A stretch of 64,000 nt of DNA, from contig JAEOTZ010000017.1 of the NCBI GenBank assembly GCA_016839585.1, positions 34,973 to 98,972 on the forward strand. Reading direction: 5' to 3'. Position 1 is the stretch's first letter. Each line of letters starts with the position of its first letter. A program made the translations under genes and the position numbers. A model generated the notes under the pieces. It was not told the origin of the DNA and did no database searches. It saw only the letters and a program-made list of their open reading frames with translations. The DNA is from Promethearchaeota archaeon (lineage in GTDB: Archaea > Asgardarchaeota > Lokiarchaeia > Sigyniarchaeales > SOKP01). Positions 1 through 24,627 of the stretch are shown piece after piece.

Positions 1-363
1 AGAATGGCAATAGCTATATGTAGAGATTTTCTTGATATGGATCTCAGAGTTGAACTTAAAAATTTTGAACCACCAATAGACATAATGTTCAATCCAGCCT
101 TTACTCCCGTTACAGCTGATTTTAAAGCAGCCCATTTTGATGCCCGGAGGTCAATATATGCTTATTGTTTCTTTGTAAATATCGCTGAATTTGGAGAATC
201 TCTCATTTACACACCAGAAAAAGAACGTATCGAAAGAACAATACCATCTAAAGAAGAGGACATAATTTTTAAAGATGTAGATCTCTTTAAATTGCGTTCA
301 GAACGTAAGAAATGGGAAAAAGAACGAAAAAGTGATAAGAGATTCATACAAAGCACAAGATAA
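1..363 (+). CDS. Hypothetical protein, C-terminal part (probably begins upstream of the window)
   Basis: Frame is open from position 1 (AGA in frame before the ATG at 4); no recognised motif. Confidence 0.6.
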   Translation, partial: RMAIAICRDFLDMDLRVELKNFEPPIDIMFNPAFTPVTADFKAAHFDARRSIYAYCFFVNIAEFGESLIYTPEKERIERTIPSKEEDIIFKDVDLFKLRSERKKWEKERKSDKRFIQSTR

Positions 364-430: not shown

Positions 431-1498
431 TTAATTTTTGGGTTTTTTTATTTTATCCTTTACTTCAGCTTCAGTTCCCTCAATTTTAAAAGGTTTTGAG
501 GGTCTTGATTTGTCAATCGGGGCATTACAAGCCCAACAAGCATTTTCCAAATTGGATAATGCACGTGCACAGTTTTCACAATATAAAGCATCACAACTAG
601 TGCAGATATACGTATTGAAACCCCCTACCTTACTTTTGCAAACTAAACATATTTTCTGTTCCCGATAATAAGTAACTTCTTCTTCAGTTATTTGTTTAGG
701 TCTTTTAGCAATCCTAAATATTGAATCTTCAATTTTTACTTCTTTTTCAGCAGAGATCTTTTCAATTTTAATAGGTTCTTCTTTCAATCCCAAATAATAC
801 AGCCAAAATGTAAAAACCATGCCAATTCTTACTAAAAAAAGTCCAACGCCAATAATTCCTAAACCCTCAATCAAACTAAATATAGAATTTAAAATGAAGC
901 CAATTGCTAAATAAAAATACTTTTTTCTTAGTACATCTGTTGATTTAATACTTTTAATCAAATACCCAATTCCAAGAAAAACGAAGGAAATAGCGACGTA
1001 TGAAAAGCCAATTAGGTAAAAAAGGCTATTAGCGAGCAAATCTTCATCAACAAGATCTTCACCTGGCACATCGGGAACGTAAATCGATATAGATCCTAGT
1101 GGATCTAAAAAAAGAAGTAATTCCCATACAATTGATATGAATACAATAAATCCAACCATATACCATTTTCTTTTAGGAATTAGCAGTTCGCCACCAACAT
1201 AAATGATAAATATTATTGAAAAAGGTACCCAAATGTAACTCATAATAGCTTGTAATTCATATGGTATATTTATTCCATTTACAATATCAAAATTTTTGCC
1301 TGTTATTAAAAGAGATAAAGATTCCCAGAAATTACCCCAATACCAAAGACCATTAAAAAAAATAGCCAAACCCATAAAAAAGAGGAGTTTAACATTAGTT
1401 TTTCTACCCTGATATATAAAATATAATCCAAAAGAGCAGCCAATTATAAGAATGCCCATTATTGAGATAACATTAAGCCAACCTACATCAGAAAGCAT
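431..1498 (-). CDS. 7TM membrane protein with C-terminal C4C4 RING-type zinc finger (candidate membrane E3 ligase), paralog 1
   Basis: Seven hydrophobic segments, then CLVC-x11-CTSC-x4-CENC-x10-CWAC; paralogous to 5518-6621 and 6820-7869. Confidence 0.8.
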   Translation of the reverse strand: MLSDVGWLNVISIMGILIIGCSFGLYFIYQGRKTNVKLLFFMGLAIFFNGLWYWGNFWESLSLLITGKNFDIVNGINIPYELQAIMSYIWVPFSIIFIIYVGGELLIPKRKWYMVGFIVFISIVWELLLFLDPLGSISIYVPDVPGEDLVDEDLLANSLFYLIGFSYVAISFVFLGIGYLIKSIKSTDVLRKKYFYLAIGFILNSIFSLIEGLGIIGVGLFLVRIGMVFTFWLYYLGLKEEPIKIEKISAEKEVKIEDSIFRIAKRPKQITEEEVTYYREQKICLVCKSKVGGFNTYICTSCDALYCENCARALSNLENACWACNAPIDKSRPSKPFKIEGTEAEVKDKIKKPKN

Positions 1499-1827
1499 TT
1501 TTGGATCCGCCTTTTTAAATATATTTTTTTTGTAATTTTTATTGTAATTATCTCTTTTTTACAATATAAAAAGCTTACTACATTAATGTTCAATCTCATT
1601 AATCTTATTAATTAAATTATTAAAAATCCATAAAAATAGTTCAATTTTATTTTGTGTTTACTGCTAAGAATATTATTAAGTAATATTATTCTCTTTTGTA
1701 TTTGATTCATTTGTATCTTTTTTCTTAGTAAATTTGTAAAAAATAATTTTATCATTGGGAGGTTTTCGTTCAATTATTCCTTTCTTTTTTGTTTTTACTA
1801 TTTTTGGATATGAATCTCTATTCTGTT

Positions 1828-1847
1828 TCTCATGCATGAGAGCTCTC
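1828..1847. promoter_or_regulatory. Overlapping palindromes in the divergent intergenic region (candidate operator)
   Basis: TCTCATGCATGAGA (1828-1841) and GAGAGCTCTC (1838-1847) are perfect palindromes between divergent genes. Confidence 0.25.
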
Positions 1848-1972
1848 TTGATATTTTTCTATAGTTTTAAACTTATCAATTATATTTATATATATTTTTC
1901 ATAATCATTTTAATTAATCTTATTATCTTAAATAAAATTAAAAATCAAGTCAAAAAATAATTAGAATCTAAG

Positions 1973-2878
1973 ATGATATCTAGGATATATGTCATAGCAA
2001 AAGGAGGGATACTCTGTTATTCAAAAAATTATATATGCCCTAGTGAAGTAGAAGATGATTTAATAAGTGGTTTTCTTACAGCAATTAGTGGTTTTGCAAA
2101 AGCAGTTAAAGTTGGTGAAATAAAATCACTTAACTTTAAAAATTTTAATTTTTTCTATTCCTATTCATCTGAATTCGATTGTATGTTTATTATTGTTACA
2201 GATATAGAAGATCTGGAAGATGAGGTAAGAGAAAAAGTAGAGTTGATGAAAGTTGAATTTATTAATAGATATCATGAATATTTAGAGAATTGGACAGGTA
2301 AAACTCAAGTGTTTGAAAGTTTTGATGAGTTTATTGAAGCACATATATATATTCCCCCAAAAGTTTTATTTGTTGGTGAAACTGGTGTAGGAAAAACAAC
2401 TATTATGGATTTATTTCCTGAAGAAACTATTTTAAATATAGATGATGATATGAATGAAATCATTGAAAAACCAGTTGATATAACAAATTTAGGAAATATA
2501 AAGCAATTTATATTAAGGGAGATTGATTTAGAAGATTTAATAAGTAATTCAAAGCAGTATAAAACTTTATTAAACATTTGCGATATTATATGTATTATAA
2601 CTAATTCAGCAGCCAGTAATTTAAGAAGAACAAAAAAATTATTTTTAAAACTTAAGAAAAAAGTCCGGAAAGCAGATTTCTATATAATTGCAAATTTTCA
2701 GGATTTAAAAGAAACATCTTTTGAAGCTAAGGAAATTGAAGAAACTTTTGGTGTAAAAACATATGGATTTTCTGCAATCCAAGAAGATTCGGCTAAAAAT
2801 ATTTTTATCATAATGAATGAAATTCTAAAAAATTCCATTTATAATAAAATTCAAATGAAGCAAAAGCAAGTTTCTTAA
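1973..2878 (+). CDS. Longin-like domain fused to a degenerate small GTPase
   Basis: N-term IYVIAKGGILCYS...DDLISGFLTAISGFA (Asgard longin-like). G1 GETGVGKT is intact, G3 DxxG is absent, G4 reads NFQD, G5 reads SA. Confidence 0.75.
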   Translation: MISRIYVIAKGGILCYSKNYICPSEVEDDLISGFLTAISGFAKAVKVGEIKSLNFKNFNFFYSYSSEFDCMFIIVTDIEDLEDEVREKVELMKVEFINRYHEYLENWTGKTQVFESFDEFIEAHIYIPPKVLFVGETGVGKTTIMDLFPEETILNIDDDMNEIIEKPVDITNLGNIKQFILREIDLEDLISNSKQYKTLLNICDIICIITNSAASNLRRTKKLFLKLKKKVRKADFYIIANFQDLKETSFEAKEIEETFGVKTYGFSAIQEDSAKNIFIIMNEILKNSIYNKIQMKQKQVS

Positions 2879-2921
2879 ATAGAAAATTCAAACTAATTAC
2901 AATCAAATCAATTTCTTAATT

Positions 2922-3434
2922 ATGACAATTGACGAGAATTACGTATTTCCATTATATATTACTAAAGAAGTAATAGAAGGGATTAAAAAGATATGTAAAG
3001 AAAACGTTAATGAAGTTTTTGGTTATTTAGTTGGAGAACGCTACATTTGGGATAAACAGAAATACATTTTATTAAATCATTATCTTTACATAAAGGAGGC
3101 TTTCATAGCAAATGAATTTTATTTTCAAGAATCAGGAGAAAAAGGGATAGTCAACAATATTCAATTTGAATTTTTTAAATATTCGGAGGAATTTGATAAA
3201 TTAAAATTAGATCCAAATAATGAAAACTTACTAAGGTTAGGGTGGTGGCATTCCCATCCAAATTTTGGATGCTTTTTAAGTAGTGTTGATTTAGCTACTC
3301 AACGCTCAATTTTTAATAAATCATATCACGTAGCTTTAGTTGTTGATCCAATTAGAGATGAATATAAATTTTTTACTTTAAATGATCAATTCGAAGATGG
3401 ATATAAAGAAATTAGTTATGCCATTATCAAGTAG
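2922..3434 (+). CDS. JAB/MPN+ (JAMM) metalloisopeptidase, Rpn11/CSN5-like
   Basis: EVFGYLVG; [21 protein letters not shown] (HxH-x7-S-x2-D); VVDPIR. Confidence 0.93.
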
Positions 3435-3487
3435 ATATTTGATAATTTTTAATTTCGATTCAATTATTAAAATAATCTTGTAAAAAT

Positions 3488-4366
3488 ATGACAGACAACA
3501 GTGATAATGAATATAAAATCTTAGGAGAGGAGGATATAAATGAGGATAAGTATGATCGACAGAAACGAATTGCTGGATGGGACCAAAATAAGATCTCAAA
3601 TGCTACGGTAATGATAATAGGGGTTGGTGCAACCGGTAACGAAGTCGCTAAAAATTTAAGCTTGAGCGGAATTGGAAAGTTAATTATTATTGATTATGAT
3701 ATTATTGAAAAATCCAATCTTAATCGATGTATTTTGTTTAATATGGAAAATAAAGTAGAAAATAAATATAAAGTAGATATCATTAAAGCAGCGTGTGAAA
3801 AACTCAATCCTGAAGTTAAAATTTTAACAATAAAGAAAGCTCTTAATGAGATAGATAAAGATTTGTATAAACAAGTGGATGTGATTTGCTCTTGTCTTGA
3901 TAATGTTGAAGCTAGACTTGAAGCAAATAATTATGCATATTATTATCAGGTACCTTTTATTGATTCTGGAATTGATGAATTCTTTGGATCAGTCCAAGCT
4001 GTATATTCTGGAGTTACTGATGCTGCTTGTCTACAATGCGGGATTTCTGGTGCTGATTTAGATTTAATGTGGGTAAAGTTTTCCTGTACAGGAGAAGAAA
4101 TCGAATCTTCTAATGGAGCTACTATTGGTAAAATTGCAACTATAATTACTACAACTTCTATTATAGGAGGAATTCAAACTCAACAAGTAATAAAATTTTT
4201 ATTAGGAATTGATCAATTTAAAGAGCAAGGAAAGTGGAATCCTCATATTGGAGAACCCTTAATAGGTAAACAATTAAATTATAATGGATTAATAAATAAA
4301 TTTGAAGTTATTGAAAAGTTAAAGAATCCAGATTGTTGGACATGTTCTTATAAGGATAATAAATGA
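3488..4366 (+). CDS. Ubiquitin-activating enzyme E1-like (ThiF/MoeB/UBA family)
   Basis: YDRQKRI, GVGATG, SNLNR, CLDN-EAR, CLQC...CWTC zinc pair, putative catalytic Cys in FSCTG. Confidence 0.92.
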   Translation: MTDNSDNEYKILGEEDINEDKYDRQKRIAGWDQNKISNATVMIIGVGATGNEVAKNLSLSGIGKLIIIDYDIIEKSNLNRCILFNMENKVENKYKVDIIKAACEKLNPEVKILTIKKALNEIDKDLYKQVDVICSCLDNVEARLEANNYAYYYQVPFIDSGIDEFFGSVQAVYSGVTDAACLQCGISGADLDLMWVKFSCTGEEIESSNGATIGKIATIITTTSIIGGIQTQQVIKFLLGIDQFKEQGKWNPHIGEPLIGKQLNYNGLINKFEVIEKLKNPDCWTCSYKDNK

Positions 4367-4475
4367 AGATTAAATCCATTTCAAAATAAAAAATGATTAT
4401 TATGAAAGATATAATATAAATATAAAGAAAGAAAATATCAATATGTAACTTAATGAGATTTTTAATTTTAAAAAG

Positions 4476-5033
4476 ATGCCAGAACTTCCTTTAGAAATTT
4501 GGAAAAATAGGATTGAAAATGAAATTAAAAGTTTAAAAAGCTTAAACGTTATCGATATGAATTCAATAGTTCAAAGTGATAATAGTGTTAAGTTTTTAAT
4601 CAATTTACAAGGCTTAGGTTTTATTATGGGTACTTTTAAGGAAGGAATTGATATTGTTCCTCAGAAAGATCATCAAATTCATTTGGAACTAAATAGAGCT
4701 TTTCCATATCCTGGAGGCATTAGATTTTCTTGGCAATCAAATATATTTCATCCCAATATTCATCCTGCTAAAGCCCCCTTGCGTTACGAATCTGGAACTG
4801 GCTATATTTGTTTAAACATTCTAAAAAAATGGTCAAGACTTACAGATTTAGAGACTACCGTCAAAGCCTTGCAAAAATTAGTGGAGAATCCTAATCCAGA
4901 TGATCCATTAAAATATGATATTTGTTTAGAAGCAGCAAATTTTTTTAAGCAAAATACTATGGAAGACCTCAAGAAAGAATTCAAAATTGAAGAAGAAGAG
5001 GAAGAAAAGGATGATATAGTCATCATAGATTAG
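4476..5033 (+). CDS. Ubiquitin-conjugating enzyme E2 (UBC fold) with acidic tail
   Basis: FPYPG, IFHPNI...GYICLNIL-KW, NPNPDDPL; tail EEEEEEKDDIVIID. Confidence 0.92.
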   Translation: MPELPLEIWKNRIENEIKSLKSLNVIDMNSIVQSDNSVKFLINLQGLGFIMGTFKEGIDIVPQKDHQIHLELNRAFPYPGGIRFSWQSNIFHPNIHPAKAPLRYESGTGYICLNILKKWSRLTDLETTVKALQKLVENPNPDDPLKYDICLEAANFFKQNTMEDLKKEFKIEEEEEEKDDIVIID

Positions 5034-5107
5034 AAAAGTTAAATATCATTCTTAATCCTAACTTATTAACTTATTCTTAATAATTGGATCTCCAATTAAA
5101 AAATAAT

Positions 5108-5374
5108 TTATTGTTTATAATAACCCCCAATTACTCTCGCCCATAAAGCTAGCTTGTCATTTTCCTTTAATCCAAATTTATGCACAGAATCCTCGATGGT
5201 TATTGTTGAAGGTAACTCCTTTCCATTTAATACTAAAGTATATGCGCGTTCCTCGGCACTAATAATGCCCATATGCTTTACAATTATGTCTATAATCCTT
5301 TCAATTGTATGATGCTCCTTAACATCAAGTTTAATAACTTTACCTGTTCGTGAATCCTCAATAGTTATTCTCAT
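5108..5374 (-). CDS. Ubiquitin-like protein precursor (GG followed by YYKQ)
   Basis: Ubiquitin-like pattern MRITIED-TGKVIKLDV...TIE...LVLNGKEL...TIED...L-L--RVIGG plus a 4-residue extension; adjacent to E1/E2/JAMM. Confidence 0.88.
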   Translation of the reverse strand: MRITIEDSRTGKVIKLDVKEHHTIERIIDIIVKHMGIISAEERAYTLVLNGKELPSTITIEDSVHKFGLKENDKLALWARVIGGYYKQ

Positions 5375-5517
5375 ATAAATCTCTCTCTTTTTTTTAAATT
5401 ATGTAAATATTTTAATGATTAATTTAATTTATTTTAAAATTTGTATTATATATTTAAATATTTTATTTCTTTTCATGTAATCTTAATTTCACTTATTTAT
5501 AATAACTTTTTGAACCT

Positions 5518-6621
5518 CTATTCTTCTCTGAGTGTTTTCCTTGATCCTTCTGATATTGTGATATCGATATCATCTTCTTCTATTTTAAAAGGTTTAATGG
5601 GTTTTGAATCGTCAATTGGATTATTACAAGACCAACACATGTTTTCTAATTGAGTTAGAATTTGAGCGCAATTATCGCAATAAAATGATTTACACTTAGG
5701 ACAAATAAAAACATCAATGAATCCCTTTAATTTTTTTTTACAAACTAAACAGATTGTTTGTTTTCGATATAACTCAATCTCTTTTATGGATATATCAGAG
5801 GGTCTAGAATAAGATAACACCTCGGATAATGAAGTTGTTAGGATATCCCTCTCAATTTCATCATCATGAATATCTTCTTCTGGCTGGGTTGTAACTTCTT
5901 CTTTTTTTACTCCCAAAACAAAAAAAAGTCCACTAGCGACCATTCCATATCTAACAATAATTAAAATGATTGTTGGCAGGAAAAATAAAATATCCACAGT
6001 TCCAAATCCTAATAAAAGAATGAAACAGATAGTTAAATTCGCGAATTTTTCTCTTAAGAGACCTGTTGATTTAACAGATCCATAAAAAAATCTAACAACA
6101 TAGAATAGTGTTGCTGTTGCAAAAAAGATAATAAGTAAAATAGAAGCAGGAGAACCCATAATTAAAACATTATCAATTAAATTTTCTCCTGAATTTGAAG
6201 GCATCTTATAATCTACAGTACCAAATGGGTCTAATAAAAGAAATAAATCAAAGATTATCGCTAAAATAATATAAATAAATAATATTGAATTTTTAAATTC
6301 TTTTTTAACACCTGGTATCAAAAATTCAATACCAAGATATATCCCAAATGAGAGAGTTGGAGCAAACCATATGAATGTTAAAATACCATGAATTCCAGAG
6401 GCATTATTCAAATTTTTGCCAGTAAAGAGGATTGTGAAAAAATCTAAAACTATACCAGTGAAAAACATACTTATGAATATGATTAGTAATCCAAAATACA
6501 ATAAAATATCAGATTTTGATTTTTTATATCTATACAGACTAAAGGAACCCCAAAGAAAACCAGTGATATACCAAATAATCGCAGTTATTCCATTAAATAG
6601 TCCAATAGGAGTTAGAGTTAT
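5518..6621 (-). CDS. 7TM + C4C4 RING-type protein, paralog 2 (extends 40 codons upstream of the ORF-track start; probable ATA start)
   Basis: In-frame upstream sequence ITLTPIGLFNGITAIIWYITGFLWGSFSLYRYKKSKSDILL aligns with the N-terminus of 6820-7869; finger CLVC-x12-CPKC-x4-CDNC-x10-CWSC. Confidence 0.78.
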   Translation of the reverse strand: MTLTPIGLFNGITAIIWYITGFLWGSFSLYRYKKSKSDILLYFGLLIIFISMFFTGIVLDFFTILFTGKNLNNASGIHGILTFIWFAPTLSFGIYLGIEFLIPGVKKEFKNSILFIYIILAIIFDLFLLLDPFGTVDYKMPSNSGENLIDNVLIMGSPASILLIIFFATATLFYVVRFFYGSVKSTGLLREKFANLTICFILLLGFGTVDILFFLPTIILIIVRYGMVASGLFFVLGVKKEEVTTQPEEDIHDDEIERDILTTSLSEVLSYSRPSDISIKEIELYRKQTICLVCKKKLKGFIDVFICPKCKSFYCDNCAQILTQLENMCWSCNNPIDDSKPIKPFKIEEDDIDITISEGSRKTLREE

Positions 6622-6819
6622 ATGCTACACCTTTTATAGTATATAGATTTCAATATATTTAAGCTTGATATTTAATAACAAAATATAAATTTGTAAAAGA
6701 TTACATAATAAATTTTGCTCAATTTCCTTAAAAATTTTTTCACTTTAAGGCAAGGCTAAATGTAATATTACTTTTTTTTAGCATCTTAAAAAAAGCTTTT
6801 AATTATTTTTAATTATATT

Positions 6820-7869
6820 TCAAGATATATCATTATTTTGCTTAACAGGTTTTGATTCATCAATTTGCTCCTCACATATCCAACACTTATTACTCATTTC
6901 TATCATCTTTTCCGTGCATTTTTCACAATATAATGCTTCACATTGAGGACATAAGAAAATTTTAATGAAGCCCTGAATTTCTCTTTCACAGATTAGACAT
7001 TTTGTTTGTTCTCGAAATGCTAAGATTTGTTCTTGTGATATCTCTTTAGATTTAGTCTCAGATAAAATATCTATAAGAGAAGGTTCTTCAGATCTAAATT
7101 TTTTAATGGAAGGCAATTTCATGCCTTTTACAGATTCTTCTTTTAAGCTAAAATAAAAGATAAATCCCCCAATAATCATAAGAACTCTTATTATAATTAT
7201 TGATGTACCTTTAGGTAAATTAAAGAAATCTAAAGGGAAAATAACTACGTCTAAAGAACCAGAACCAAAAAATACTATGAAAGTGATTAATAATAATATG
7301 AGTTTCTTTCTTAATATTCCTGAGGATTTAATACCACTATATAAAAATGAAAGACTAAATACTATAATCCCCGGAAATAAAGAAATTCCGAGCATATAAA
7401 ATGGAGGAGTCCAAAAAACTAAGATATTATCAATTAAGTCTTGACCGGGTTCTGAGGGGCTTTTATAAATAATCGAACTTGAATGAGTTAAAAATAACAG
7501 AATTTCGTATATTATACTTATTATCGAAAAATAAATTAATATTAAATACTTCAACCATACTTTAAAGTTCATAGCAATAAGTTCATTAAATATATAGGTA
7601 CCAATAATTATTAAAGGACCAAACCAGAAAAATGTAAGAATACCATGTATATTTGTATCTAAGTTGCTCTCTGTAAAAAGAACTAATAAAGAATCTAAAA
7701 CCAAACCTGAATATAATAAGCTTATAAATAATATAGCCAAACCCATAGAAAATAAAACATTTGATTTTGATTTCCTTGCCTTAATTAAACTATATGTCCC
7801 CCATATTAAACCAAGGGTAAACCATATAATAATGGTTAAAGCACTTATTACTCCAATAGGAGAAGGCAT
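6820..7869 (-). CDS. 7TM + C4C4 RING-type protein, paralog 3
   Basis: Seven hydrophobic segments; CLIC-x12-CPQC-x4-CEKC-x10-CWIC. Confidence 0.8.
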   Translation of the reverse strand: MPSPIGVISALTIIIWFTLGLIWGTYSLIKARKSKSNVLFSMGLAILFISLLYSGLVLDSLLVLFTESNLDTNIHGILTFFWFGPLIIIGTYIFNELIAMNFKVWLKYLILIYFSIISIIYEILLFLTHSSSIIYKSPSEPGQDLIDNILVFWTPPFYMLGISLFPGIIVFSLSFLYSGIKSSGILRKKLILLLITFIVFFGSGSLDVVIFPLDFFNLPKGTSIIIIRVLMIIGGFIFYFSLKEESVKGMKLPSIKKFRSEEPSLIDILSETKSKEISQEQILAFREQTKCLICEREIQGFIKIFLCPQCEALYCEKCTEKMIEMSNKCWICEEQIDESKPVKQNNDIS

Positions 7870-8520: not shown

Positions 8521-8853
8521 TTATTTTTTAGAATTAATTAATGCTTCTGCTATTTTATGAAAACTTAATTCTACATTTTTTCCAGTTAAAGCAGAAGTTT
8601 CTATATAATCGAGGTTAAGTTCTTTTGCAATTTTGATTACTTCTTTTTCCCCAAGTAGTCTACTTTCCGATAGATCTACCTTGTTTCCTAAAATAAAGCC
8701 TATTATCTTAGTATTGGATATTATATATTTTTTTATGTCCTCATACCATTTTGGTATACTTTCAAAGGATTTACGATTTGTTAAATCAAATATTAAAATA
8801 ACTGCTTCTGTTCCTTTATAAAAATGTTTTCTCATTGTTTCGAACTTGGATTG
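8521..8853 (-). pseudogene. 5'-truncated Rab-like small GTPase
   Basis: Keeps G4 GNKVD and G5 ETSAL. Homology to paralogs runs upstream only to QSKFETM (cf. WDIAGQIKFETM) and then stops; G1/G2 and most of G3 are missing. Confidence 0.8.
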
Positions 8854-12310: not shown

Positions 12311-13471
12311 TTATTTTGGTCTTCTTCTTCTTAATATGAAGATTGCTAAGCCAATCACCGCTCCCCCACCAATAACCGAAGATGTGATAATAATTAACTC
12401 TAGAGGAAATGCGTCTCCACCTGTCGGTCCCTCTTTGTAACCAAAATTCACCAGTAACATATCGGAATATGTCACGTAAGTATCTGAAAACCCCCCAAGG
12501 TAGAGATTATCAGAGGAATCCACTGCTCCACAATAACATATTTCACGGTTATCACCACCCCACGTACGATTCCAAAGTTGTATCCCAGAATTATCATATT
12601 TCACCAAAACCATATCATCACCTCCAGCTCCAAAACTACCTGTCTCTCCTGTAAGGTAAATATTATCTGTAGAATCAATTGCAATTCCATAACTACTGTC
12701 AGATAGAGCACCACCCCACGTGCGATTCCATAGTTGCACTCCAGAACTATCGTACTTCACCAGAATTATATCCTCCTCACCTGCGCCAAAGCTGAAGGTT
12801 TCTCCCACAATGAAAATATTATTTGACGAGTCCAGTGCAATTCCAAAGCCACTGTCAGATAGGGCACCACCCCACGTGCGATTCCATAGTTGCACTCCAG
12901 AACTATCATACTTCACCAGAATTATATCCTCCTCACCTGCACCAAAGTTATTTGAAACTCCTACAAGATAAATATTATCTAATGAGTCTACTTCTACTCC
13001 CCAACCGGTATCCACATTAAGAATAGCACTCCCTCCCCACGTACGATTCCAGAGTTGTATCCCAGAACTATCATATTTCACCAAAACCATATCAACACCT
13101 CCAGCTCCAAAACTCCCTGTCTCTCCTGTAAGATACACATTGTCTAATGAATCTACCGTCACTCCATAACTCTTGTCGTAACTACTTCCCCCCCAGGTAC
13201 GATTCCAAAGTAGTGTCCCAGAATTATCATATTTCAGCACAGCAATAGCTGAACTTCCTTGACCAAAACTATATGAATACCCCACAAAATAAATATTATC
13301 TGAAGAATCCACTGCTACACCATTGCCATTTTCGGGGTCGTTTCCACCCCATTTACGATACCAGTTAACTCCAAAAGAATTATTTGTCGATAAAACACTA
13401 GATATTTGTAATATAAAGCTAAAGTACATAACTAATATAACCATTGTTAAGTAAGATCTTTTATTTTTCAT
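12311..13471 (-). CDS. SBBP beta-propeller repeat surface protein with C-terminal TM anchor
   Basis: Signal peptide; repeats of D-LVKYDSSG-QLWNRTWGG...G-AVDS-NIY-G; TM followed by RRRRPK. Confidence 0.88.
   Translation of the reverse strand: MKNKRSYLTMVILVMYFSFILQISSVLSTNNSFGVNWYRKWGGNDPENGNGVAVDSSDNIYFVGYSYSFGQGSSAIAVLKYDNSGTLLWNRTWGGSSYDKSYGVTVDSLDNVYLTGETGSFGAGGVDMVLVKYDSSGIQLWNRTWGGSAILNVDTGWGVEVDSLDNIYLVGVSNNFGAGEEDIILVKYDSSGVQLWNRTWGGALSDSGFGIALDSSNNIFIVGETFSFGAGEEDIILVKYDSSGVQLWNRTWGGALSDSSYGIAIDSTDNIYLTGETGSFGAGGDDMVLVKYDNSGIQLWNRTWGGDNREICYCGAVDSSDNLYLGGFSDTYVTYSDMLLVNFGYKEGPTGGDAFPLELIIITSSVIGGGAVIGLAIFILRRRRPK
12695..12947. repeat. Near-identical intragenic repeat, 156-bp period
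   Basis: 12695-12791 vs 12851-12947 differ at about 3 positions and encode identical GAGEEDIILVKYDSSGVQLWNRTWGGALSDS. Confidence 0.85.
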
Positions 13472-13743
13472 TTATCACTTTCAACTTCTTTTTATATTTT
13501 TTTCTCATTTTCACTTACTCTTTTCTTGTAGATTATAATTAAATGATGAGAGATAGTACCCTTTATAATTGAGCTTCCGATAGTTCCATAGAACTTTCAA
13601 TATCTTGTGATAGTTTCTTAGAAAAAGTATAAATAGATACGAGAATGGTATAAGCATTCTATTAAATAATTAGTTATCTTCTTAGCCAAAATCTAGTTTA
13701 AATTTTTTAAAAGTAAGAGAAAAAAAAAATAATTTAAAAAGAA

Positions 13744-14694
13744 TTAAGATAATTCATAATAAAGTGCTACCATACCCACAGCTGCTAAAATCCCTGCTCC
13801 AATAAATAATATTGCCGACCATTCTGCAGTAAAAAGCACTTCCCAGAAATCAAATTTTACTGGATCTGGATTGTAATTTGTCACTGCCAAAATAATTATC
13901 AAAGTTATAAAGCTTGCAATTCCAAAAGTTATCCCTGCCCATACTGCTAGAGCTAGTAAAATTTTCTTTCCCACTTCATTAATTTCATGGTAGGTCTGAC
14001 GTCGAATGATCTTCTTTAAGCGCTTTAATTCTTGTTTTGGGAACCATTGTTTTGGTCCAAAATGGATTTTCTTATAAGTTTCTTTCGAATAAATGTGGAA
14101 ATTCTCAATAGGATTCTTTGCTATGTTAATATGTGTCGCTGTATTAGGCAAATCTGTTATGTTGAACTCTTTTAATTGATTATTATCAAGGATTACTTTT
14201 TTCAATTTTTGAAAATTTCTAATATTTTCAATTTTTTGGACCTTATTATCACTTAGTTTTAGTATTCTTAAATTTGGAAAATATTCAATTCCCTTCATAG
14301 TTGTTATTTGATTGTGAGAAAGATCCAGCTTTCTTACACGCCAGAGATGATCAAGCCCTTGAATATCAGTAATACTGTTTATGTGTTTACCACATAATTT
14401 TAAGGATTTTGATCCCACACGATGTTGTATTCCTTCAATTATAATATACTTTGGTTCCAAATTTTGTGCTGAAGATGGATTGGGGGTTGTAAATGTATTA
14501 GGTAGCTCTGGTTTGATATCTGTTGATTCTGTAATTCTTAGGTATATAGAAATAATTGCAGTACCGATTATCGATAGTACCATAAGTGTGAGCATCACTA
14601 TAGGATTTAGAGTTAATAGCCAAACCAATAAAAAAAGAACTAGACATTCTACATACCATATCCTTTTTGACCATGGATCAAGATTTTTGTCCAT
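13744..14694 (-). CDS. Leucine-rich repeat protein with N- and C-terminal TM pairs
   Basis: LDLSHNQIT, LKLSDNKVQ, ILDNNQLK LRRs between hydrophobic ends; its ATG abuts the stop of the upstream gene. Confidence 0.85.
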   Translation of the reverse strand: MDKNLDPWSKRIWYVECLVLFLLVWLLTLNPIVMLTLMVLSIIGTAIISIYLRITESTDIKPELPNTFTTPNPSSAQNLEPKYIIIEGIQHRVGSKSLKLCGKHINSITDIQGLDHLWRVRKLDLSHNQITTMKGIEYFPNLRILKLSDNKVQKIENIRNFQKLKKVILDNNQLKEFNITDLPNTATHINIAKNPIENFHIYSKETYKKIHFGPKQWFPKQELKRLKKIIRRQTYHEINEVGKKILLALAVWAGITFGIASFITLIIILAVTNYNPDPVKFDFWEVLFTAEWSAILFIGAGILAAVGMVALYYELS

Positions 14695-17600
14695 TTACTT
14701 CTCCCTTCTTCTAAGTTTTTTAACGATTAATGGAATTGATATTACGGCAATTATTCCCGCTATACTGGTTCCTATAATTATCGGCAACAGATTTGGTTGT
14801 TTTGTTGTTTTTACTTCTTTAACTGTTATGGCTATTGTATCAGCAATAGAATTTCCATACGCGTCAGTAAAATTGATAGTAAAGATGTATTCGCCTGAAG
14901 ATAGACCTTCTGGAATGATATAGACAATCGCCACTCCGCTTGACCAAGAAGCTGGACCTGCTACGATACCAGACCCTTGAAGCTCAATCGTATAGGTATT
15001 TGGATGAGGATCTGTTGCCGTCCATGAGATATTTACTCCAGAATAGCCGTAATCAACCGTAAAATCACTTGGGGCATCTGTTATTACCGGATCTATCGTA
15101 TCTTCAATAGTCATAGTGACTGTATGAGTAGCAAAGTTACCATAGTTGTCTGTAAAGTTAACGGTATAGATGTACTCGCCTACATTTAAACCATCTGGGA
15201 TGGTATAGTTGATTGGAGTATTACTAAGCCATGAATCTGGACCTGCTACGATACCAAATCCTTGAAGCTCAATTAAATAAGTATTTGGATGTGGATCAGT
15301 TGCAGTCCAAGAAATACTTATCCCTGTGTATCCGAACTCGATATTAAAGTCGCTTGGGGTATCTGTTATTGTCGGACCTATTGTATCATCAATAGTCATA
15401 ATAACTGTATCAGTAGCAAATTGACCATAACTATCAGTAAAGTTAATGGTATAGATATATACACCCACATCTAAACCATCTGGGATGGTATAGTTGATTG
15501 GAGTATTGTTAGACCATGAATCTGGACCTGCTACGATACCACTTCCTTGAAGTTCAATGGTGTAAATGTGTGAATGTAGATCTGTTGCAGTCCAAGAAAT
15601 ATTTATCCCTGTGTACCCAAACTCGATGTTAAAGTCGCTTGGGGCATCAATTATTATCGGATCTAAGGTATCAGATATCTCATCTGTAAATTTAGGTCTT
15701 AAAAAGTCTTTTCCAGCAAGACCTTGCCATAATACCTCTTCTCCAGAAGTAGTAGGATTGAGAGCATATATCTTATTATCATCACTCCCTACAATTATTT
15801 CAAGCTTTCCATCTCCATCCACATCTCCCAGAGCAGGTGAGGAAATTATATTTCCTCCCAACTGATAGTTCCAAGCTTTAGTTCCATCTTCGCCGTTTAT
15901 TGCATATATATTATCATCATAACTTCCTACTATTACTTCAAATTTTCCATCACCATCGATATCGCCTATTGCAGGAGATGAATACACTTGATCTCCCGTT
16001 TGAAAGTTCCAAGTTTCAGTTCCATCTTCGCCGTTTATTGCATATATCTTATTATCATAACTTCCTACTACTACTTCAAACCTTCTATCACCATCAATAT
16101 CAGCTATTGCAGGAGATGACATTATCCTACTTGCTGTCGTATAATTCCAAATTTCAGTTCCATCCTTGCCGTTTATTGCATATATTTTGCCGTTATAACT
16201 CCCTACTACTACTTCAAACTTTCCATCTCCATCCACATCGCCTATTGCTGGAGAAGAATAGATATCATCTCCAGTGTTATATTTCCACCTAAGAGATCCA
16301 CTCTCTCCATTTAATGCATATAAATAGTGATCACCACTTCCAATAACTACCTCAAGCTTTCCATCACCATCCACATCTCCCAGAGCAGGCGAAGAAATGA
16401 TAATGTAATTCGTCTTATGACTCCATAATACACCTCCATTCTCTCCATTTAGGGCAAATATTCTACCATCATAGGTATTACCAAAGATTACCTCAAGCTT
16501 TCCATCCCCATCCACATCTCCCAGAGCAGGTGAAGAATCTACATCACTTTGAGTATCAAACTGCCATATCAGGTTCCCATTTTCACCATTTAGAGCATAT
16601 AAATAATTATCGTCACTTCCCACTACGACCTCAAGTTTACCATCCCCATCAATATCTCCAAGAGCAGGTGAACATGAAATACTACTCCCAGTTGCGTAAT
16701 TCCATAGCTCAGTTCCATCTTCACTATTTAGAGCATACACCTTGTCATCATGGCTTCCGATTATAACTTCGAGTTTCCCATCCTCGTCTATATCTCCTAA
16801 TGCTGAAGAGGAAGTTATATCGTCTCCTGTTGGGTAATTCCATAATTCTGAAACCAATGGAAAGGACTTCATTCTGTAAAAGTCAGTGCCGGCTAATCCT
16901 TGCCATACGATTTTTTCTCCAGAAGGAGTAGATTTTATTGCATATACTTTATAATCATAGCATCCTATTACTACCTCAAGAGTCCCATCTCCATCCAAAT
17001 CACCTAATGATGGAGAAGACCTAACTAACCCACCCGTCTGGTATGACCAAGATATACTTCCATCCTTACCATTAATTGCATACACTTTTCGGTCATCGCT
17101 TCCAATCACTACTTCGAGCTTTCCATCACCATCCACATCACCTATCGCAGGAGAAGACCATACTTGGTTTCCTGTTGAGATTTTCCATTCGACACTTCCA
17201 TCTTCTCCGTTGAATACGTACACATAATTATCAGTATTTCCAATGCCTGACTCAGTACTTCCAACCACTACTTCTAGTTTTCCATCACCGTCCACATCAC
17301 CTAAAGCAGGCGAAGACCATACAATTGACGCTTCTGTGGCGCGCCACCATGCAGTAGTACCGTCTTCTCCATTTAGAGCATAAACTCTGGAATTTGAAGT
17401 TCCGAATACCACTTCAAGCTTTCCATCCCCATCTATATCTCCTATAGCTGGAGATGAGAAGCAGTTAAGGTTTCTAGACCATACAGGGGTTCCATCCTCA
17501 CCGTTAAATACATAAGTACCCGCAACGACCTCGAGTTTTCCATCACCGTCCACATCGCCCAATGAGGGAGAATATGCTGCACCACCTAAATATTCCCATA

Positions 17601-18186
17601 GCACACTTCCATTTTCACCGTGTAATACTTTTATGTTTCCAGTACTTCCAGAAAACAAAATATGTACTACTACTTCAAGTTCCTCATCTCCATTTACGTC
17701 GCCCAGAACAATAGGATTATCTACAACACCGCCAAATTTTGTTGTCCATTCAGTATTTCCAGTCAGACTATTCAAAGAATAAACATGTTGATTCGTACTT
17801 CCTATTAATACTTCCAAATATCCATCATCATCAACATCGCCTATTGCAGGAGATGAGTGTATACTATCCCAACCATCTCCCGTTTTATGATCCCACATCA
17901 GGCTTCCAGATTCACCACTTAGGGCATATATAGTACTATTATGACTTCCGAAGAACACTTCAAGCTTCCCATCGTGATCTACATCAAATAGTGCAGGGTT
18001 ACAATATACTTGATCATCAGCTTGAAAACTCCATAATAACGAGGCTGTTGCTGAAGTATTCAATTCGCTTTCCATAGTATTAAAGTGGTTTTCCATTTTC
18101 GTATCTTGAATAACTGTTGTTGCTGCAAAAATAGTTCCTAAAATCAGTACTATAATAACAATTTTTGGGTTTATGATTTTTTTCAT
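14695..18186 (-). CDS. FG-GAP/PQQ-like repeat double beta-propeller + three Ig-like repeats + C-terminal TM (large surface protein)
   Basis: Many SSPA[IL]GD[VI]DGDGKLEVV-GS-D--VYA-NGEDG---W repeats with DxDGDG Ca-binding-like motifs; three P-ITDAPSDF...YTINFTD-YG repeats; TM then KKLRRREK. Confidence 0.88.
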   Translation of the reverse strand: MKKIINPKIVIIVLILGTIFAATTVIQDTKMENHFNTMESELNTSATASLLWSFQADDQVYCNPALFDVDHDGKLEVFFGSHNSTIYALSGESGSLMWDHKTGDGWDSIHSSPAIGDVDDDGYLEVLIGSTNQHVYSLNSLTGNTEWTTKFGGVVDNPIVLGDVNGDEELEVVVHILFSGSTGNIKVLHGENGSVLWEYLGGAAYSPSLGDVDGDGKLEVVAGTYVFNGEDGTPVWSRNLNCFSSPAIGDIDGDGKLEVVFGTSNSRVYALNGEDGTTAWWRATEASIVWSSPALGDVDGDGKLEVVVGSTESGIGNTDNYVYVFNGEDGSVEWKISTGNQVWSSPAIGDVDGDGKLEVVIGSDDRKVYAINGKDGSISWSYQTGGLVRSSPSLGDLDGDGTLEVVIGCYDYKVYAIKSTPSGEKIVWQGLAGTDFYRMKSFPLVSELWNYPTGDDITSSSALGDIDEDGKLEVIIGSHDDKVYALNSEDGTELWNYATGSSISCSPALGDIDGDGKLEVVVGSDDNYLYALNGENGNLIWQFDTQSDVDSSPALGDVDGDGKLEVIFGNTYDGRIFALNGENGGVLWSHKTNYIIISSPALGDVDGDGKLEVVIGSGDHYLYALNGESGSLRWKYNTGDDIYSSPAIGDVDGDGKFEVVVGSYNGKIYAINGKDGTEIWNYTTASRIMSSPAIADIDGDRRFEVVVGSYDNKIYAINGEDGTETWNFQTGDQVYSSPAIGDIDGDGKFEVIVGSYDDNIYAINGEDGTKAWNYQLGGNIISSPALGDVDGDGKLEIIVGSDDNKIYALNPTTSGEEVLWQGLAGKDFLRPKFTDEISDTLDPIIIDAPSDFNIEFGYTGINISWTATDLHSHIYTIELQGSGIVAGPDSWSNNTPINYTIPDGLDVGVYIYTINFTDSYGQFATDTVIMTIDDTIGPTITDTPSDFNIEFGYTGISISWTATDPHPNTYLIELQGFGIVAGPDSWLSNTPINYTIPDGLNVGEYIYTVNFTDNYGNFATHTVTMTIEDTIDPVITDAPSDFTVDYGYSGVNISWTATDPHPNTYTIELQGSGIVAGPASWSSGVAIVYIIPEGLSSGEYIFTINFTDAYGNSIADTIAITVKEVKTTKQPNLLPIIIGTSIAGIIAVISIPLIVKKLRRREK

Positions 18187-18289
18187 ATTTTTCACTTCCT
18201 TTGTTTTATAAATTATTTTTTTTAGATTTTGACAATTTTATATAATTGGAAAAAAAAATTTGATTGTTATATTTAAAGAAAAAAGAGTA

Positions 18290-18395
18290 TTTTCCTAATG
18301 TACGATGCCATTCGTATGTATATGTTATCCTTATCCCCTCTTTACCTTTTTTTAGTTTTCGTATTTATTTTTCCCTTCTCCTAAGTTTTTTATTA
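18290..18395 (-). pseudogene. Mosaic of gene remnants (KKLRRREK* end and YEWHRT start)
   Basis: 18365-18391 encodes KKLRRREK*, as at the end of the FG-GAP gene; ~18299-18316 encodes YEWHRT, as at the mature start of 18427-20310. Confidence 0.6.
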
Positions 18396-18426
18396 GAATA
18401 TAATATCTTTCAAATTTTATTGGGAT

Positions 18427-20310
18427 TTAGCTCATCCTTCTTTTTCTAATATATACTACAACTGCAACGCCAATCACTGCTCCTCCACCAACAGTCGTTG
18501 TTAGAATTATTAATTCGAAAGGAATTTCTGGTTCTTCATTTTTCTTTACTTTTTCTATAATTACTTCACTATGCCCAATATTTCCTACGAGGTCTTTAGC
18601 CCAAAACTCCATTGATATGCTACCATATGAAGCAGCTTCCCATGCAGTTTGATTTATTGTCCCTGTCTCGTGAATAATACTGAAGTTAGTAATACCATTA
18701 TCAATAGTATACCATATTGAATCCAAATTTGGTTCTATGAGTGAGATATCATAATTAGGAGCGTCATCACTGAATTTTTCTCCTTGAGAGGGTTTATTTA
18801 TAGTAATTTTAGGGTCATCAATATCTTTAAAGATTGTAACCTCAGCATGTCCTTTTTTACTAAAGGTATTATTCGCCCAAAATGTAATATTTATCCAACT
18901 AGTTCCTTCTTTTTCCCATTCTGTTTGGTTTATTGTTCCAATCAGTCCACTAAATATAATATTAGATAATCCATCATCTAACGTATACCATGTAGAATCT
19001 AAATTTGGTTCAAGAACAGAAATATTGAAAGTTGGTGCTAAAATTCCAAATAACTCATTTTGTTGTGGCGAATTAATTACAACTTCTGGAATCTTACAAT
19101 ACTTCACCAAAGCAATATCTTCAAGACCAACTTCTGTTATTCCCCCGAAATACACATTTTCTGATGAATCCAATGCTATTCCAAAACCCATATCTCTTAA
19201 ACTTCCGCCCCATGTGTAATACCATTGCTCCTCACCAAGAGAATTATATTTCACGAGAGTCATGTCAAACAATCCCGTACCAAAACCAACTGTTGTCCCT
19301 GCAAAGTAAATATTATCCGAAGAATCCACCGCTATTCTGTTACCATAATCGGTACTAATTCCGCCCCATGTACGATACCACTGCTGCACACCAGTACTAT
19401 CATATTTAAGTAAAACCATATCGCTATCTCCCGCTCCAAAACTTCTTGTTCTTCCTGATACATACATGTTATCAGATGAATCTACAGCCACACCCAAACC
19501 ATAATCCCAATTACTTCCGCCCCATGTTTTATTCCATTGCAGTATTCCAGCACTATCATATTTCTCCAAAAGTATGTCTTTAAGTCCTGCTCCAAAATAT
19601 GTGTCTCCTACAAGATAAATATTACCTAATGAATCCAAAGCTAATGACGTACCGAGACTTCCAATTTCACTCTCGGTATTAATCCACTGTAGTACCCCAA
19701 AACTGTCATATTTCACTAGAACAACGTTACCGAAGCTCTCTGTATATCCCGTAATATACACATTATTTGCTGTATCTACAGTTATCCCCAAACCTTCATC
19801 ATCTTCAGTCCCACCCCATGTGCGATTCCACTGTTGTACTCCGTCACTATCGTATTTCACTAGAACAATATCAGAACCTCCTGCGGTGTAACTTTGGGTG
19901 TTCCCTACAAGATAAATAAAGTTTGTTGAATCAACAGCTAAATCCGCACCATAATCGTAATTTACTCCACCCCATGTACGATACCACTGCTGCACTCCAG
20001 CATTATTAAATTTCACCAGAACAATATCAGTCCCACCTGCCCCGTAACTCTCTGTGTATCCCACAACATATATATTATCTAACGAATCTATTGCAACTCT
20101 ACCACCAATATCACTTAAACCACCACCCCAGGTACGATGCCACTCATATTCATGTGAAATGCTTGTAGATGATTTAATTTTAATGTTTCTATTATCTTCA
20201 TCACTTTGTCGATTAGAAATAATATTTTTTCCCTGGAATATAAAGCTAAAACACAGAATTAAAATAAATACCGCTAAATATGTTTTTTTCATTGAGTACT
20301 TTTTTTTCAT
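18427..20310 (-). CDS. SBBP beta-propeller + two Ig-like domains + C-terminal TM
   Basis: Signal peptide, seven WxRTWGG-type repeats, two EPNLDS-WYT-D-G domains, tail IPFELIILTTTVGGGAVIG...RKRR. Confidence 0.88.
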   Translation of the reverse strand: MKKKYSMKKTYLAVFILILCFSFIFQGKNIISNRQSDEDNRNIKIKSSTSISHEYEWHRTWGGGLSDIGGRVAIDSLDNIYVVGYTESYGAGGTDIVLVKFNNAGVQQWYRTWGGVNYDYGADLAVDSTNFIYLVGNTQSYTAGGSDIVLVKYDSDGVQQWNRTWGGTEDDEGLGITVDTANNVYITGYTESFGNVVLVKYDSFGVLQWINTESEIGSLGTSLALDSLGNIYLVGDTYFGAGLKDILLEKYDSAGILQWNKTWGGSNWDYGLGVAVDSSDNMYVSGRTRSFGAGDSDMVLLKYDSTGVQQWYRTWGGISTDYGNRIAVDSSDNIYFAGTTVGFGTGLFDMTLVKYNSLGEEQWYYTWGGSLRDMGFGIALDSSENVYFGGITEVGLEDIALVKYCKIPEVVINSPQQNELFGILAPTFNISVLEPNLDSTWYTLDDGLSNIIFSGLIGTINQTEWEKEGTSWINITFWANNTFSKKGHAEVTIFKDIDDPKITINKPSQGEKFSDDAPNYDISLIEPNLDSIWYTIDNGITNFSIIHETGTINQTAWEAASYGSISMEFWAKDLVGNIGHSEVIIEKVKKNEEPEIPFELIILTTTVGGGAVIGVAVVVYIRKRRMS

Positions 20311-20383
20311 ATTTTTCACTTGTTTTGTTTTCAAAATTGATTTTTATTAGATTTTGACAATTAGAGATTAATTCTCCTAATTA

Positions 20384-24072: not shown

Positions 24073-24205
24073 TTTAGATTTTCTCCATTTATAGCTCTTT
24101 ATGAAAGGATTATTTTAATTAAAAAAAATCGTTATTCAATCATATTTTGTATTTTCGCTTTTTTATTTTTTATTGATCGAATTACTTAGAAATATTATTA
24201 AAATC

Positions 24206-24523
24206 TTACTTTTCAGCTTGGGAGAGCTCTAATGCGTTGCCGTTAATGCAATAATACCCCCAACGGAGACCCATTGTTCTAGTAATTGGGCATTGCCCAC
24301 ATAAACAAGCTTTCTTCTCAGTTATTACGGAACTCTTTCCCACCATACAAAAAGCAAGAGATTCTTCTCCAGTTCCCTCATAACTTGGACATTTTCCGCA
24401 ATACTCCCTACACATATATATTATTTGTTCACGACCATTCTTCTGTTGTTTTTCTGACATCTTGCTGTATAGCATTTTCATTTTTTCTTCAAAAGTGGCA
24501 GTTTTGAAATTTTTTTCCGACAT
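24206..24523 (-). CDS. DUF2769-like cysteine-rich metal-binding protein
   Basis: C-CGKCPSY...FC--GKS...CLCGQCP...YYC. Confidence 0.75.
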   Translation of the reverse strand: MSEKNFKTATFEEKMKMLYSKMSEKQQKNGREQIIYMCREYCGKCPSYEGTGEESLAFCMVGKSSVITEKKACLCGQCPITRTMGLRWGYYCINGNALELSQAEK

Positions 24524-24627
24524 TAGTATTATAACACTTTATTTCTTTCTGAATTTGATGTAATTATGAATCAACATGAAAATCTATTAAATTTTATTAA
24601 AAAAAAAGATTGATTTTTTGGCTTTTC

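Follow-up and report, generated by a model that had tools for sequence, protein, structure and literature searches.

Which protein could serve as the E3 ligase is the question raised by a compact ubiquitin locus of a Promethearchaeota archaeon, whose genome (G000) comprises 3.45 Mb with 27% G+C in 91 contigs. We analysed a stretch of 64,000 nucleotides (nt) of this genome, positions 34973–98972 of contig C89, and refer to this whole stretch as the window. Reading of open reading frames (ORFs) together with Pfam searches located eight genes packed in window positions 431–7869: a plus-strand operon with the order Arf-like GTPase, JAMM protease, ThiF-type E1 and UBC-type E2; a minus-strand gene for a membrane protein, here called TMR1, which is divergent from the operon; and, on the minus strand and convergent on the operon, the membrane-protein genes TMR3 and TMR2 followed by a ubiquitin-like gene. 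In eukaryotes, hundreds of E3s confer specificity on ubiquitin, and membrane RING ligases have been treated as a eukaryotic trait. The archaeal systems that have been reconstituted, that of Caldiarchaeum (PMC5654768) and a Helarchaeial one (bioRxiv 10.1101/2023.07.25.550441), use one small soluble RING per cascade. In the 64-kb window, no such small soluble RING protein was found, the RING-like ORFs detected by RING-like patterns and by our finger hidden Markov model (HMM) being only the three membrane proteins; the endosomal sorting (ESCRT) queries Snf7, Vps4_C and Vps25 had all their matches on other contigs. An earlier note on this DNA had placed the same eight genes, including three paralogous seven-transmembrane (7TM) proteins with an eight-cysteine finger flanking the cascade, and had noticed the lack of a soluble RING and of an ESCRT gene in the window; the gene set is confirmed, and so, for the queries used, are these two absences. 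It had proposed that the membrane proteins take the E3 role, and we consider it reasonably probable that they are membrane-embedded RING E3s of a self-contained ubiquitylation module of the eukaryotic type.

The three membrane proteins show pairwise identities of 32–37%, and each contains seven hydrophobic segments followed by a C-terminal finger with the pattern C-x2-C-x11/12-C-x2-C-x4-C-x2-C-x10-C-W-x-C. TMR1 (431–1498, minus strand) has 355 amino acids (aa) and a finger HMM E-value of 2.4e-36; TMR2 (5518–6621, minus strand; finger HMM E 1.1e-33) lies directly upstream of the ubiquitin-like gene on the same strand, and TMR3 (6820–7869, minus strand; 349 aa, assigned with an AlphaFold2 (AF2) model) lies upstream of both on that strand. 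AF2 modelling with 35 homologues gave seven helices with high confidence, the predicted local distance difference test (pLDDT) score of the membrane part being about 90; the model also has a small beta hairpin in loop four. Lys and Arg residues, as read from the sequence, are clustered after transmembrane segments (TM) 1, 3, 5 and 7, and this distribution therefore points to an N-out, C-in topology with the finger on the cytoplasmic side.

The start of TMR2 needed separate inspection. No ATG, GTG or TTG precedes its TM1, and the first canonical start, TTG at 6501, would give a protein of 327 aa with six TM, whereas ATA at 6621 gives 367 aa with all seven helices; the frame is open to 6624 and TM1 is homologous to that of the paralogs. 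A layout of AAAGGTG, 6 nt and ATA or ATT ahead of TM1 is conserved in this genome and in two others (G182 and G208); AAAGGTG is Shine-Dalgarno-like, the start is ATA here and ATT in the two sister species, and the TM1 part is open in all three. From the conserved layout and the TM1 coding sequence, we infer that TMR2 begins at the non-canonical ATA at 6621. Orthologues of the TMR1 type (GGFN-x-YIC) adjoin the ubiquitin gene in three relatives (L036, L058 and L060), and TMR3 orthologues with 72–89% identity in public data are named "RING finger protein" or "DC1 domain-containing protein" and labelled Lokiarchaeota or Promethearchaeota, and Hodarchaeota in two records.

The eight Cys zinc ligands of the finger, which have the order and spacing of a RING, are invariant in 39 finger sequences. 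When a profile of the finger was compared with PDB sequences, the best matches were RNF4 (1.7e-4), TRIM37 (5e-4), and RNF113-like proteins and TFIIH p44 (1e-3), and these alignments are in register across all eight Cys. The AF2 model of the isolated finger has a pLDDT of 81, and nearly all of its top 50 Foldseek matches in PDB are RING E3 domains, including TRIM37, BMI1/RING1B, the HRD1 zinc finger (6a3z, E 0.039), RNF165, EL5 and RNF38. The last three superpose with a root-mean-square deviation (rmsd) of 1.6–2.6 Å over 47–51 columns (RNF165, 1.6 Å over 47). The Foldseek E-values are 0.01–0.3, weak values that are to be expected for a domain of about 50 residues. The finger is thus predicted, as judged from the model, to have the cross-brace RING fold.

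We modelled the complex of E2 residues 1–165 with the finger, as had been suggested earlier, and the score was 0.62, the best of three controls being 0.00. Among solved complexes, 58 of 80 attain the mark used for such models, as do 2 of 110 mismatched pairs, counts that apply only roughly here because our own alignments were used. The runs share at least 51% of their contacts, and the pLDDT of the partner is at least 73. The predicted interface joins E2 residues 1–19, 78–79 and 121–124, that is helix 1, the P77-Y78 loop (loop 4) and the 121–124 loop (loop 7), with finger residues 24–28, 49–58 and 62–63, which comprise the residues after the first Cys, the central helix and the Trp after the seventh Cys; it is the canonical RING–E2 surface. 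The contact residues are mostly conserved on both partners: helix 1, P77-Y78, W119, L122 and D124 of the E2 are invariant, and the finger has an invariant W62 and a nearly invariant K27. The loop-4 Pro-Tyr of the E2 and the equivalent RING residues are needed for activity of the Caldiarchaeum cascade (PMC5654768). Because many RING–E2 complexes have been solved, the passing score may reflect likeness to these complexes rather than binding.

We then surveyed 154 genomes of the order and fetched 60 E2 loci; the genomes are related and are to be regarded as non-independent samples. The E2 subfamily is present in 73 of the 154 genomes, and the GTPase-JAMM-E1-E2 block with a convergent ubiquitin gene is conserved in 55 of the 60 loci. 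Adjacency was counted in the 51 ubiquitin-bearing loci that extend at least 2 kb beyond the ubiquitin gene. An intact multi-TM finger gene lies within 3 kb of the ubiquitin gene in 27 of these, mostly 60–400 bp upstream on the ubiquitin strand, and six more loci have one at 3.4–3.7 kb, four of them at the operon head, so that 33/51 loci have a finger gene within 3.7 kb. Of the remaining loci, five contain remnants and three have other finger architectures. By chance, about one locus would be expected, since the 85 genomes, each about 3.8 Mb in size, together contain 471 finger matches, or some 1.5 copies per Mb. The membrane domains encoded by the operon-adjacent finger genes are of three kinds (7TM, about 9TM and 5–6TM), and the arrangement persists down to 57–60% E2 identity and across four genera. 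The earlier note had held that scattering of the finger genes over the genome with no enrichment near ubiquitin genes would speak against its proposal; the genes are indeed scattered, at 1–21 copies per genome, but against this background copy number they are strongly enriched beside ubiquitin genes. The site beside the ubiquitin gene that holds the membrane RING gene in other genera is taken in genus g5 (L001:8641–9354 and L002:10840–11586) by a soluble protein with a CxxCxxCC domain (PF03692, E 2e-11).

Finger and E2 also occur together. Among the 154 genomes, 71 have both, 67 have neither, 2 have the E2 without the finger and 14 the finger without the E2. In the genus of the window, 43 of 54 genomes (its own included) have the E2, as do 15 of 42 in genus g12; in the former genus, 10 of the 11 genomes lacking the E2 lack the finger too. 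That the two are coupled within genera, and that the partner domain changes, argues for a functional link between E2 and finger. In the sister family f4 (L027, L028 and L029), profile searches found no E1, JAMM, ubiquitin or finger gene within 10 kb of the E2, which is 53–54% identical to that of the window, and those genomes hold 4–14 finger copies.

The ligase reading is favoured because the RING fold, the RING-dominated profile matches, the predicted docking, the adjacency conserved in four genera and the joint presence and absence with the E2 all point in this direction, and on these computational grounds the proposal of the earlier note is supported. Several observations weigh against it. 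The gap between the fourth and fifth Cys is four residues, and that of classical RINGs is two or three. All Pfam RING models score below their gathering thresholds, the best being zf-C3HC4_3 with 20.8 bits (cut-off 27; for TMR1 a weak, sub-threshold match of E 3.4e-4), followed by Prok-RING_1 with 18.6 (29.1) and zf-RING_2 with 17.9 (27.3), and the Foldseek and profile E-values are marginal for such a small domain. The linchpin position after the last Cys is occupied by N, E, D, S, M, L or A and never by R or K in the 39 fingers, and a nearby Lys in a D-E-S-K-P motif is kept in more than 70% of them; in srfp of Caldiarchaeum, a linchpin at the same position is required (R69A; PMC5654768). Ten loci with room for a finger gene have none and some others have only remnants, so the operon can persist without an adjacent copy. 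Three of the 14 genomes with the finger and without this E2 (G184, G233 and G234) are 99–100% complete, and a further one (G238) is 99% complete and has only a weak match (E 2e-18). Finally, the relatives sampled are not independent of one another.

What the membrane part may contribute is indicated by the distribution and the fold of the family. The finger is present at E ≤ 1e-10 in 85 of the 154 genomes of the order, with only weak matches outside families f1 and f4, and a profile search against 1.84 billion representatives gave 706 clusters at the same threshold. Among the listed finger proteins of 290 aa or longer, 105 of 106 contain at least four hydrophobic segments, and all carry the finger at the C-terminal end; other N-terminal parts are an FG-GAP propeller with one TM and a beta-helix with several TMs. 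The full-length protein family is present in 133 of the 134 other genomes of the same taxonomic family and hardly elsewhere in the phylum, many of its matches being 7TM-only proteins of about 240 aa. The genome under study has four intact finger-protein copies, the three described here and one 9TM form amid unrelated genes on contig C8, and three 7TM-only paralogs. A PDB search with the full-length model gave only generic matches to G-protein-coupled receptors (TM-score 0.32–0.48, rmsd 6–11 Å), and kinship with these receptors was set aside as the matches are weak and generic. The nearest models in the ESM Atlas are Promethearchaeota proteins with the same 7TM part, alone or fused to TIR, followed by bacterial sensors in which HisKA_7TM is joined to a kinase, GGDEF or EAL output. 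Query-based TM-scores to HisKA_7TM-bearing clusters are 0.51–0.62 at rmsd 4.1–4.6 Å; an EAL/GGDEF protein without HisKA_7TM annotation scores 0.53. A feature search gave 0.89 to a cluster that contains HisKA_7TM at 10% and has been automatically named "Histidine kinase N-terminal 7TM region". Residues 1–245 of the 7TM part have no Pfam match at E up to 0.1, HisKA_7TM (PF16927) included. One Atlas cluster of 78 proteins, all from Archaea and mostly from Promethearchaeota, combines the same 7TM fold with TIR_2, so that no fewer than two kinds of cytoplasmic output are paired with the 7TM module in this lineage.

The label "receptor-like" given in the earlier note therefore stands in part: the 7TM fold appears nearest to HisKA_7TM and 7TM-TIR proteins and the finger also follows propeller and beta-helix ectodomains, but there is no sequence match to any sensor family. 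A sensor input joined to an output is thus partly supported, by architecture only. A more specific proposal is that these are receptor-type ligases, in which sensor modules switch the RING and a signal from outside or from the membrane is written as ubiquitin marks by a dedicated E1, E2 and deubiquitylase; we regard it as tentative and rather unlikely as it stands. The same low probability applies to its corollary that one E2 serves up to about 20 ligases per cell; if true, the whole would amount to an E3 network in prokaryotes and to a signalling output that is not known from archaea or bacteria.

It is also conceivable, but in our judgement doubtful, that the module is an accessory conflict system of antiviral nature, in which membrane sensors with a RING output trigger ubiquitin-like tagging, on proteins of the invader or the host, upon infection or envelope damage, in the manner of the bacterial Bil and CBASS Cap2/Cap3 pathways. 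The aforementioned patchiness even within a genus and the variable finger copy number would suit such a system, as would repeated pseudogenisation of the operon-adjacent copies (L011, L034, L035 and L038), the 78 proteins mentioned above, in which this 7TM fold is fused to the immune effector domain TIR_2, and the fact that bacterial E1/E2/JAB/ubiquitin-like operons are known or predicted defences (PMC10557695). The PADLOC system models for Bil and CBASS Cap2/Cap3 were, however, not matched; PADLOC gave only generic hits for the JAB (1.4e-7) and E1 (4.7e-18) domains and none for the E2, the ubiquitin-like protein, the GTPase or the membrane proteins. Genes annotated nearby encode small GTPases, beta-propeller surface proteins, a nitroreductase and a PEP-utilising enzyme and include none recognisable as a defence gene, and the mean column identity of 72% in the ubiquitin-like protein is unusual for a component of an arms race.

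We think it improbable that the finger is a RING-like zinc module without ligase function, namely a structural or a protein- or lipid-binding treble-clef finger like those of TFIIH p44, FYVE, PHD or C1-like domains, in which case the membrane proteins would act in the cascade as substrates, regulators or ubiquitin receptors, and another protein would supply the E3 function or none would be needed. Pfam matches of the finger to C1_2, FYVE, B-box-like and double zinc ribbon models are as weak as those to RING models, and TFIIH p44 is among the best profile matches; the lack of the linchpin Arg or Lys, the classical soluble zf-RING_2 proteins encoded on other contigs and the operons without an adjacent finger gene would also fit. 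Set against these points, genuine RING E3 domains make up most of the fold matches, the modelled complex uses the canonical E2-binding face with controls at 0.00, the interface residues are conserved on both partners, and finger and E2 have been gained and lost together.

A functionally meaningless adjacency, in which an expanding lineage-specific membrane family landed by the operon in an ancestor and was then inherited, would agree with most copies lying elsewhere in the genomes, with the restriction of the arrangement to one family of one order (possibly few independent events) and with the E2 standing alone in f4, but we hold it to be very improbable, since retention at 57–60% E2 identity in four genera and tightly coupled presence and absence within genera speak against it and three membrane-domain classes at either operon end argue for maintenance or repeated recruitment.

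The other components of the cascade were assigned as follows, with JAB, ThiF and UQ_con domains all exceeding Pfam cut-offs. The JAMM/MPN+ metalloprotease (2922–3434, plus strand; 170 aa; PF01398 JAB, E 1.3e-9) has the complete motif H-S-H-x7-S-x2-D and is, by analogy with Rpn11 of Caldiarchaeum (PMC5654768), probably the ubiquitin-precursor maturase and a deubiquitylase. The E1-like activating enzyme (3488–4366, plus strand; 292 aa; PF00899 ThiF, E 3.6e-47) carries a CxxC...CxxC zinc motif. The E2 (4476–5033, plus strand; 185 aa; PF00179 UQ_con, E 3.6e-12) matches eukaryotic E2s in PDB by profile (E 3.5e-9) and keeps HPN and the catalytic Cys112, with an insertion of about 10 residues between them that the f4 relatives do not have. 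Helix 1, the FPYPGG loop, HPN, Cys112 and W119/L122/D124 are invariant across 35 orthologues. The acidic C-terminal tail of the E2 ends in DDIVIID, and the hydrophobic-acidic consensus DDIIIIDD of this tail is kept in nearly all orthologues, including those of f4. The ubiquitin-like modifier precursor (5108–5374, minus strand; 88 aa) ends in R-V-I-G-G followed by YYKQ, which corresponds to a mature form of 84 aa; in PDB its profile matches only ubiquitin, from end to end (7–85 on 6–77), and the GG is invariant in 55 orthologues and followed by 0–15 variable residues.

The Arf-like P-loop GTPase (1973–2878, plus strand), assigned from PDB profile matches and Atlas neighbours, is the first gene of the operon and heads it in most of the 60 loci. 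About 125 N-terminal residues precede its P-loop domain; the family profile matches Arl/Arf proteins in PDB over residues 129–263 (E about 1e-3), and in the Atlas it falls next to Arf/Ras/Roc clusters from Promethearchaeota (0.98). Its P-loop, GxxGVGKT, shows no variation, and NFQD stands at the G4 motif. The C-terminal end of a long paralog lies at window positions 1–363 on the plus strand (tblastn, 56% identity over 297 aa with the short GTPase); this paralog of about 871 aa begins upstream of the window at about position 32720 of C89, and its ORF crosses into the window as seen in locus L061 (7748–10000). Its last 119 aa have no Pfam match. A form of 790–880 aa lies directly upstream of the JAMM gene in relatives L013, L024, L035, L036, L043 and L057–L060, where the long GTPase heads the operon in place of the short one.

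The genome contains other ubiquitin and ESCRT genes. A second, more canonical operon on contig C61 (L064:4970–8045) encodes ubiquitin (110 aa), E1 (411 aa), E2 (175 aa) and JAB (280 aa), and no RING gene was found in the 8 kb inspected near it. A further E2 and E1 are located on C5, classical soluble zf-RING_2 proteins on five other contigs, and ESCRT genes on C13, C48 and C61. Since a second operon, other E1 and E2 enzymes, RING proteins and ESCRT genes are thus present elsewhere, the module in the window is an additional, specialised ubiquitin system.

Comparison with known systems clarifies what is particular to this locus. The core features of archaeal ubiquitin operons are present: ubiquitin with GG and a tail, a ThiF-type E1, a UBC-type E2 with HPN and Cys, and an intact JAMM. 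The Ub/E1/E2/srfp/Rpn11 operon of Caldiarchaeum subterraneum (PMC5654768) likewise combines pro-ubiquitin bearing a C-terminal extension with a ThiF-type E1, a UBC-type E2 and a JAMM protease, and in both cases a RING-type finger is expected on loops 4 and 7 of an E2 with the same loop-4 Pro-Tyr. Its E3, in contrast, is a small soluble RING-H2 protein with a linchpin Arg, whereas here a C4C4 finger without this Arg ends a seven-helix protein, three finger copies are found at the locus and up to 21 in a genome, and an Arf-like GTPase heads the operon. The Helarchaeial E1/E2/RING-E3 cascade (bioRxiv 10.1101/2023.07.25.550441) resembles the present system in its Asgard pro-ubiquitin and RING E3, and it has been reconstituted in vitro and ubiquitylates UEV-Vps23; it is soluble and lies in an ESCRT cluster, whereas here no ESCRT gene is on the contig and the candidate E3s are membrane proteins.

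Eukaryotic TM RING E3s (Hrd1, MARCH/Doa10, RNF43/ZNRF3 and PA-TM-RING) share the general plan of a membrane or extracellular module with a cytoplasmic RING that recruits the E2; their membrane parts have no detectable homology to those described here, and the present finger is C4C4 and not RING-H2 or RING-CH. No Hrd1, MARCH or Doa10 chain was among the PDB matches of the full-length model, and a relationship to Hrd1 and endoplasmic-reticulum-associated degradation was rejected because the generic RING fold is the sole link. Since the family is restricted to a single order of Lokiarchaeia, shared ancestry with the eukaryotic TM ligases is not indicated. The statement of the earlier note that multipass RING E3s are considered eukaryotic appears overstated: in 2011, Burroughs, Iyer and Aravind are said to have predicted in Mol Biosyst, from comparative genomics only, membrane-associated RING-like proteins in bacterial E1/E2/JAB/Ubl operons. 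Those reported operons belong to another domain of life and another RING subfamily, whereas the present one has an Asgard, eukaryote-like E2 and ubiquitin and a sensor-like 7TM module. HisKA_7TM sensors similarly place an N-terminal seven-helix membrane module before a cytoplasmic output, but the output here is a RING finger and not a kinase or cyclase, and the likeness has no counterpart in Pfam sequence matches. The C4C4 RINGs of TFIIH p44/Ssl1 and CNOT4 also have all-Cys ligands, with p44 in register as described above; these are soluble nuclear proteins, and the resemblance is marginal, RNF4 and TRIM37 being matched at least as well. Our literature searches, which mostly did not cover subscription papers and are thus weak evidence of novelty, found no account of 7TM-RING proteins or membrane RING ligases in Asgards.

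From the gene content, the family membership of the E1, E2, JAMM and ubiquitin, the predicted RING fold, synteny and co-occurrence, we infer a course of events that extends to catalytic activity, E2–RING binding, topology, substrates and regulation by signals. JAMM would trim YYKQ off the ubiquitin precursor, and the E1 would activate the exposed Gly-Gly and hand ubiquitin to Cys112 of the E2. The seven-helix domain would hold the C4C4 RING on the cytoplasmic face of the cell membrane, where the finger would dock on helix 1 and loops 4 and 7 of the E2, and the ligase itself or proteins at the membrane could then receive ubiquitin. Such tagging may serve signalling or quality control, the two purposes proposed in the earlier note, or defence. 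One E2 would serve many E3s, in which the RING tail is constant and the parts for sensing or substrate recognition vary, from 7TM, 9TM and 5–6TM modules to an FG-GAP propeller with one TM or a beta-helix with TM. The Arf-like GTPase is probably a regulator or an adaptor.

Some other features of the window are recorded here. In the cluster at 23023–25332 on the minus strand, a 7TM-only paralog without a finger (24628–25332, 234 aa) is accompanied by a DUF2769 Cys-rich protein (24206–24523) and by a Rab/Ras-like GTPase with a long N-terminal extension (23023–24072), so that a 7TM protein is again located beside a small GTPase. A tblastn match at 24376–25332 was considered as a broken fourth 7TM-RING gene and rejected, because the frames show the intact 7TM-only paralog followed by the unrelated DUF2769 protein. 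A 104-aa ORF at 8521–8835 on the minus strand aligns with the Ras domain at positions 64–160 only (E 1.2e-23), its frame lacking the P-loop half, and may be a truncated or frameshifted small GTPase. The block at 12311–20334 on the minus strand has a G+C content of 0.34–0.41, compared with about 0.27, and encodes large surface-type proteins with beta-propeller, FG-GAP and LRR modules (386, 316, 1166 and 635 aa); an FG-GAP module as in this block is fused to the RING tail in relatives L057 and L059. An Rfam scan of the whole window gave zero RNA families.

If the ligase reading is true, an Asgard lineage has built, apparently independently, a membrane network of one E2 and many E3s, and a sensor-type 7TM module has been joined to a ubiquitin output. 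The system would be small and clonable, consisting of E1, E2, ubiquitin, JAMM and a finger tail of about 80–95 residues, and would allow the diversification of E3s and membrane-coupled ubiquitylation to be studied. Our findings suggest that receptor-like membrane ubiquitin ligases arose outside eukaryotes too, and the limitation of the family to one order means that they bear on convergent evolution more than on the ancestry of Hrd1 and MARCH.

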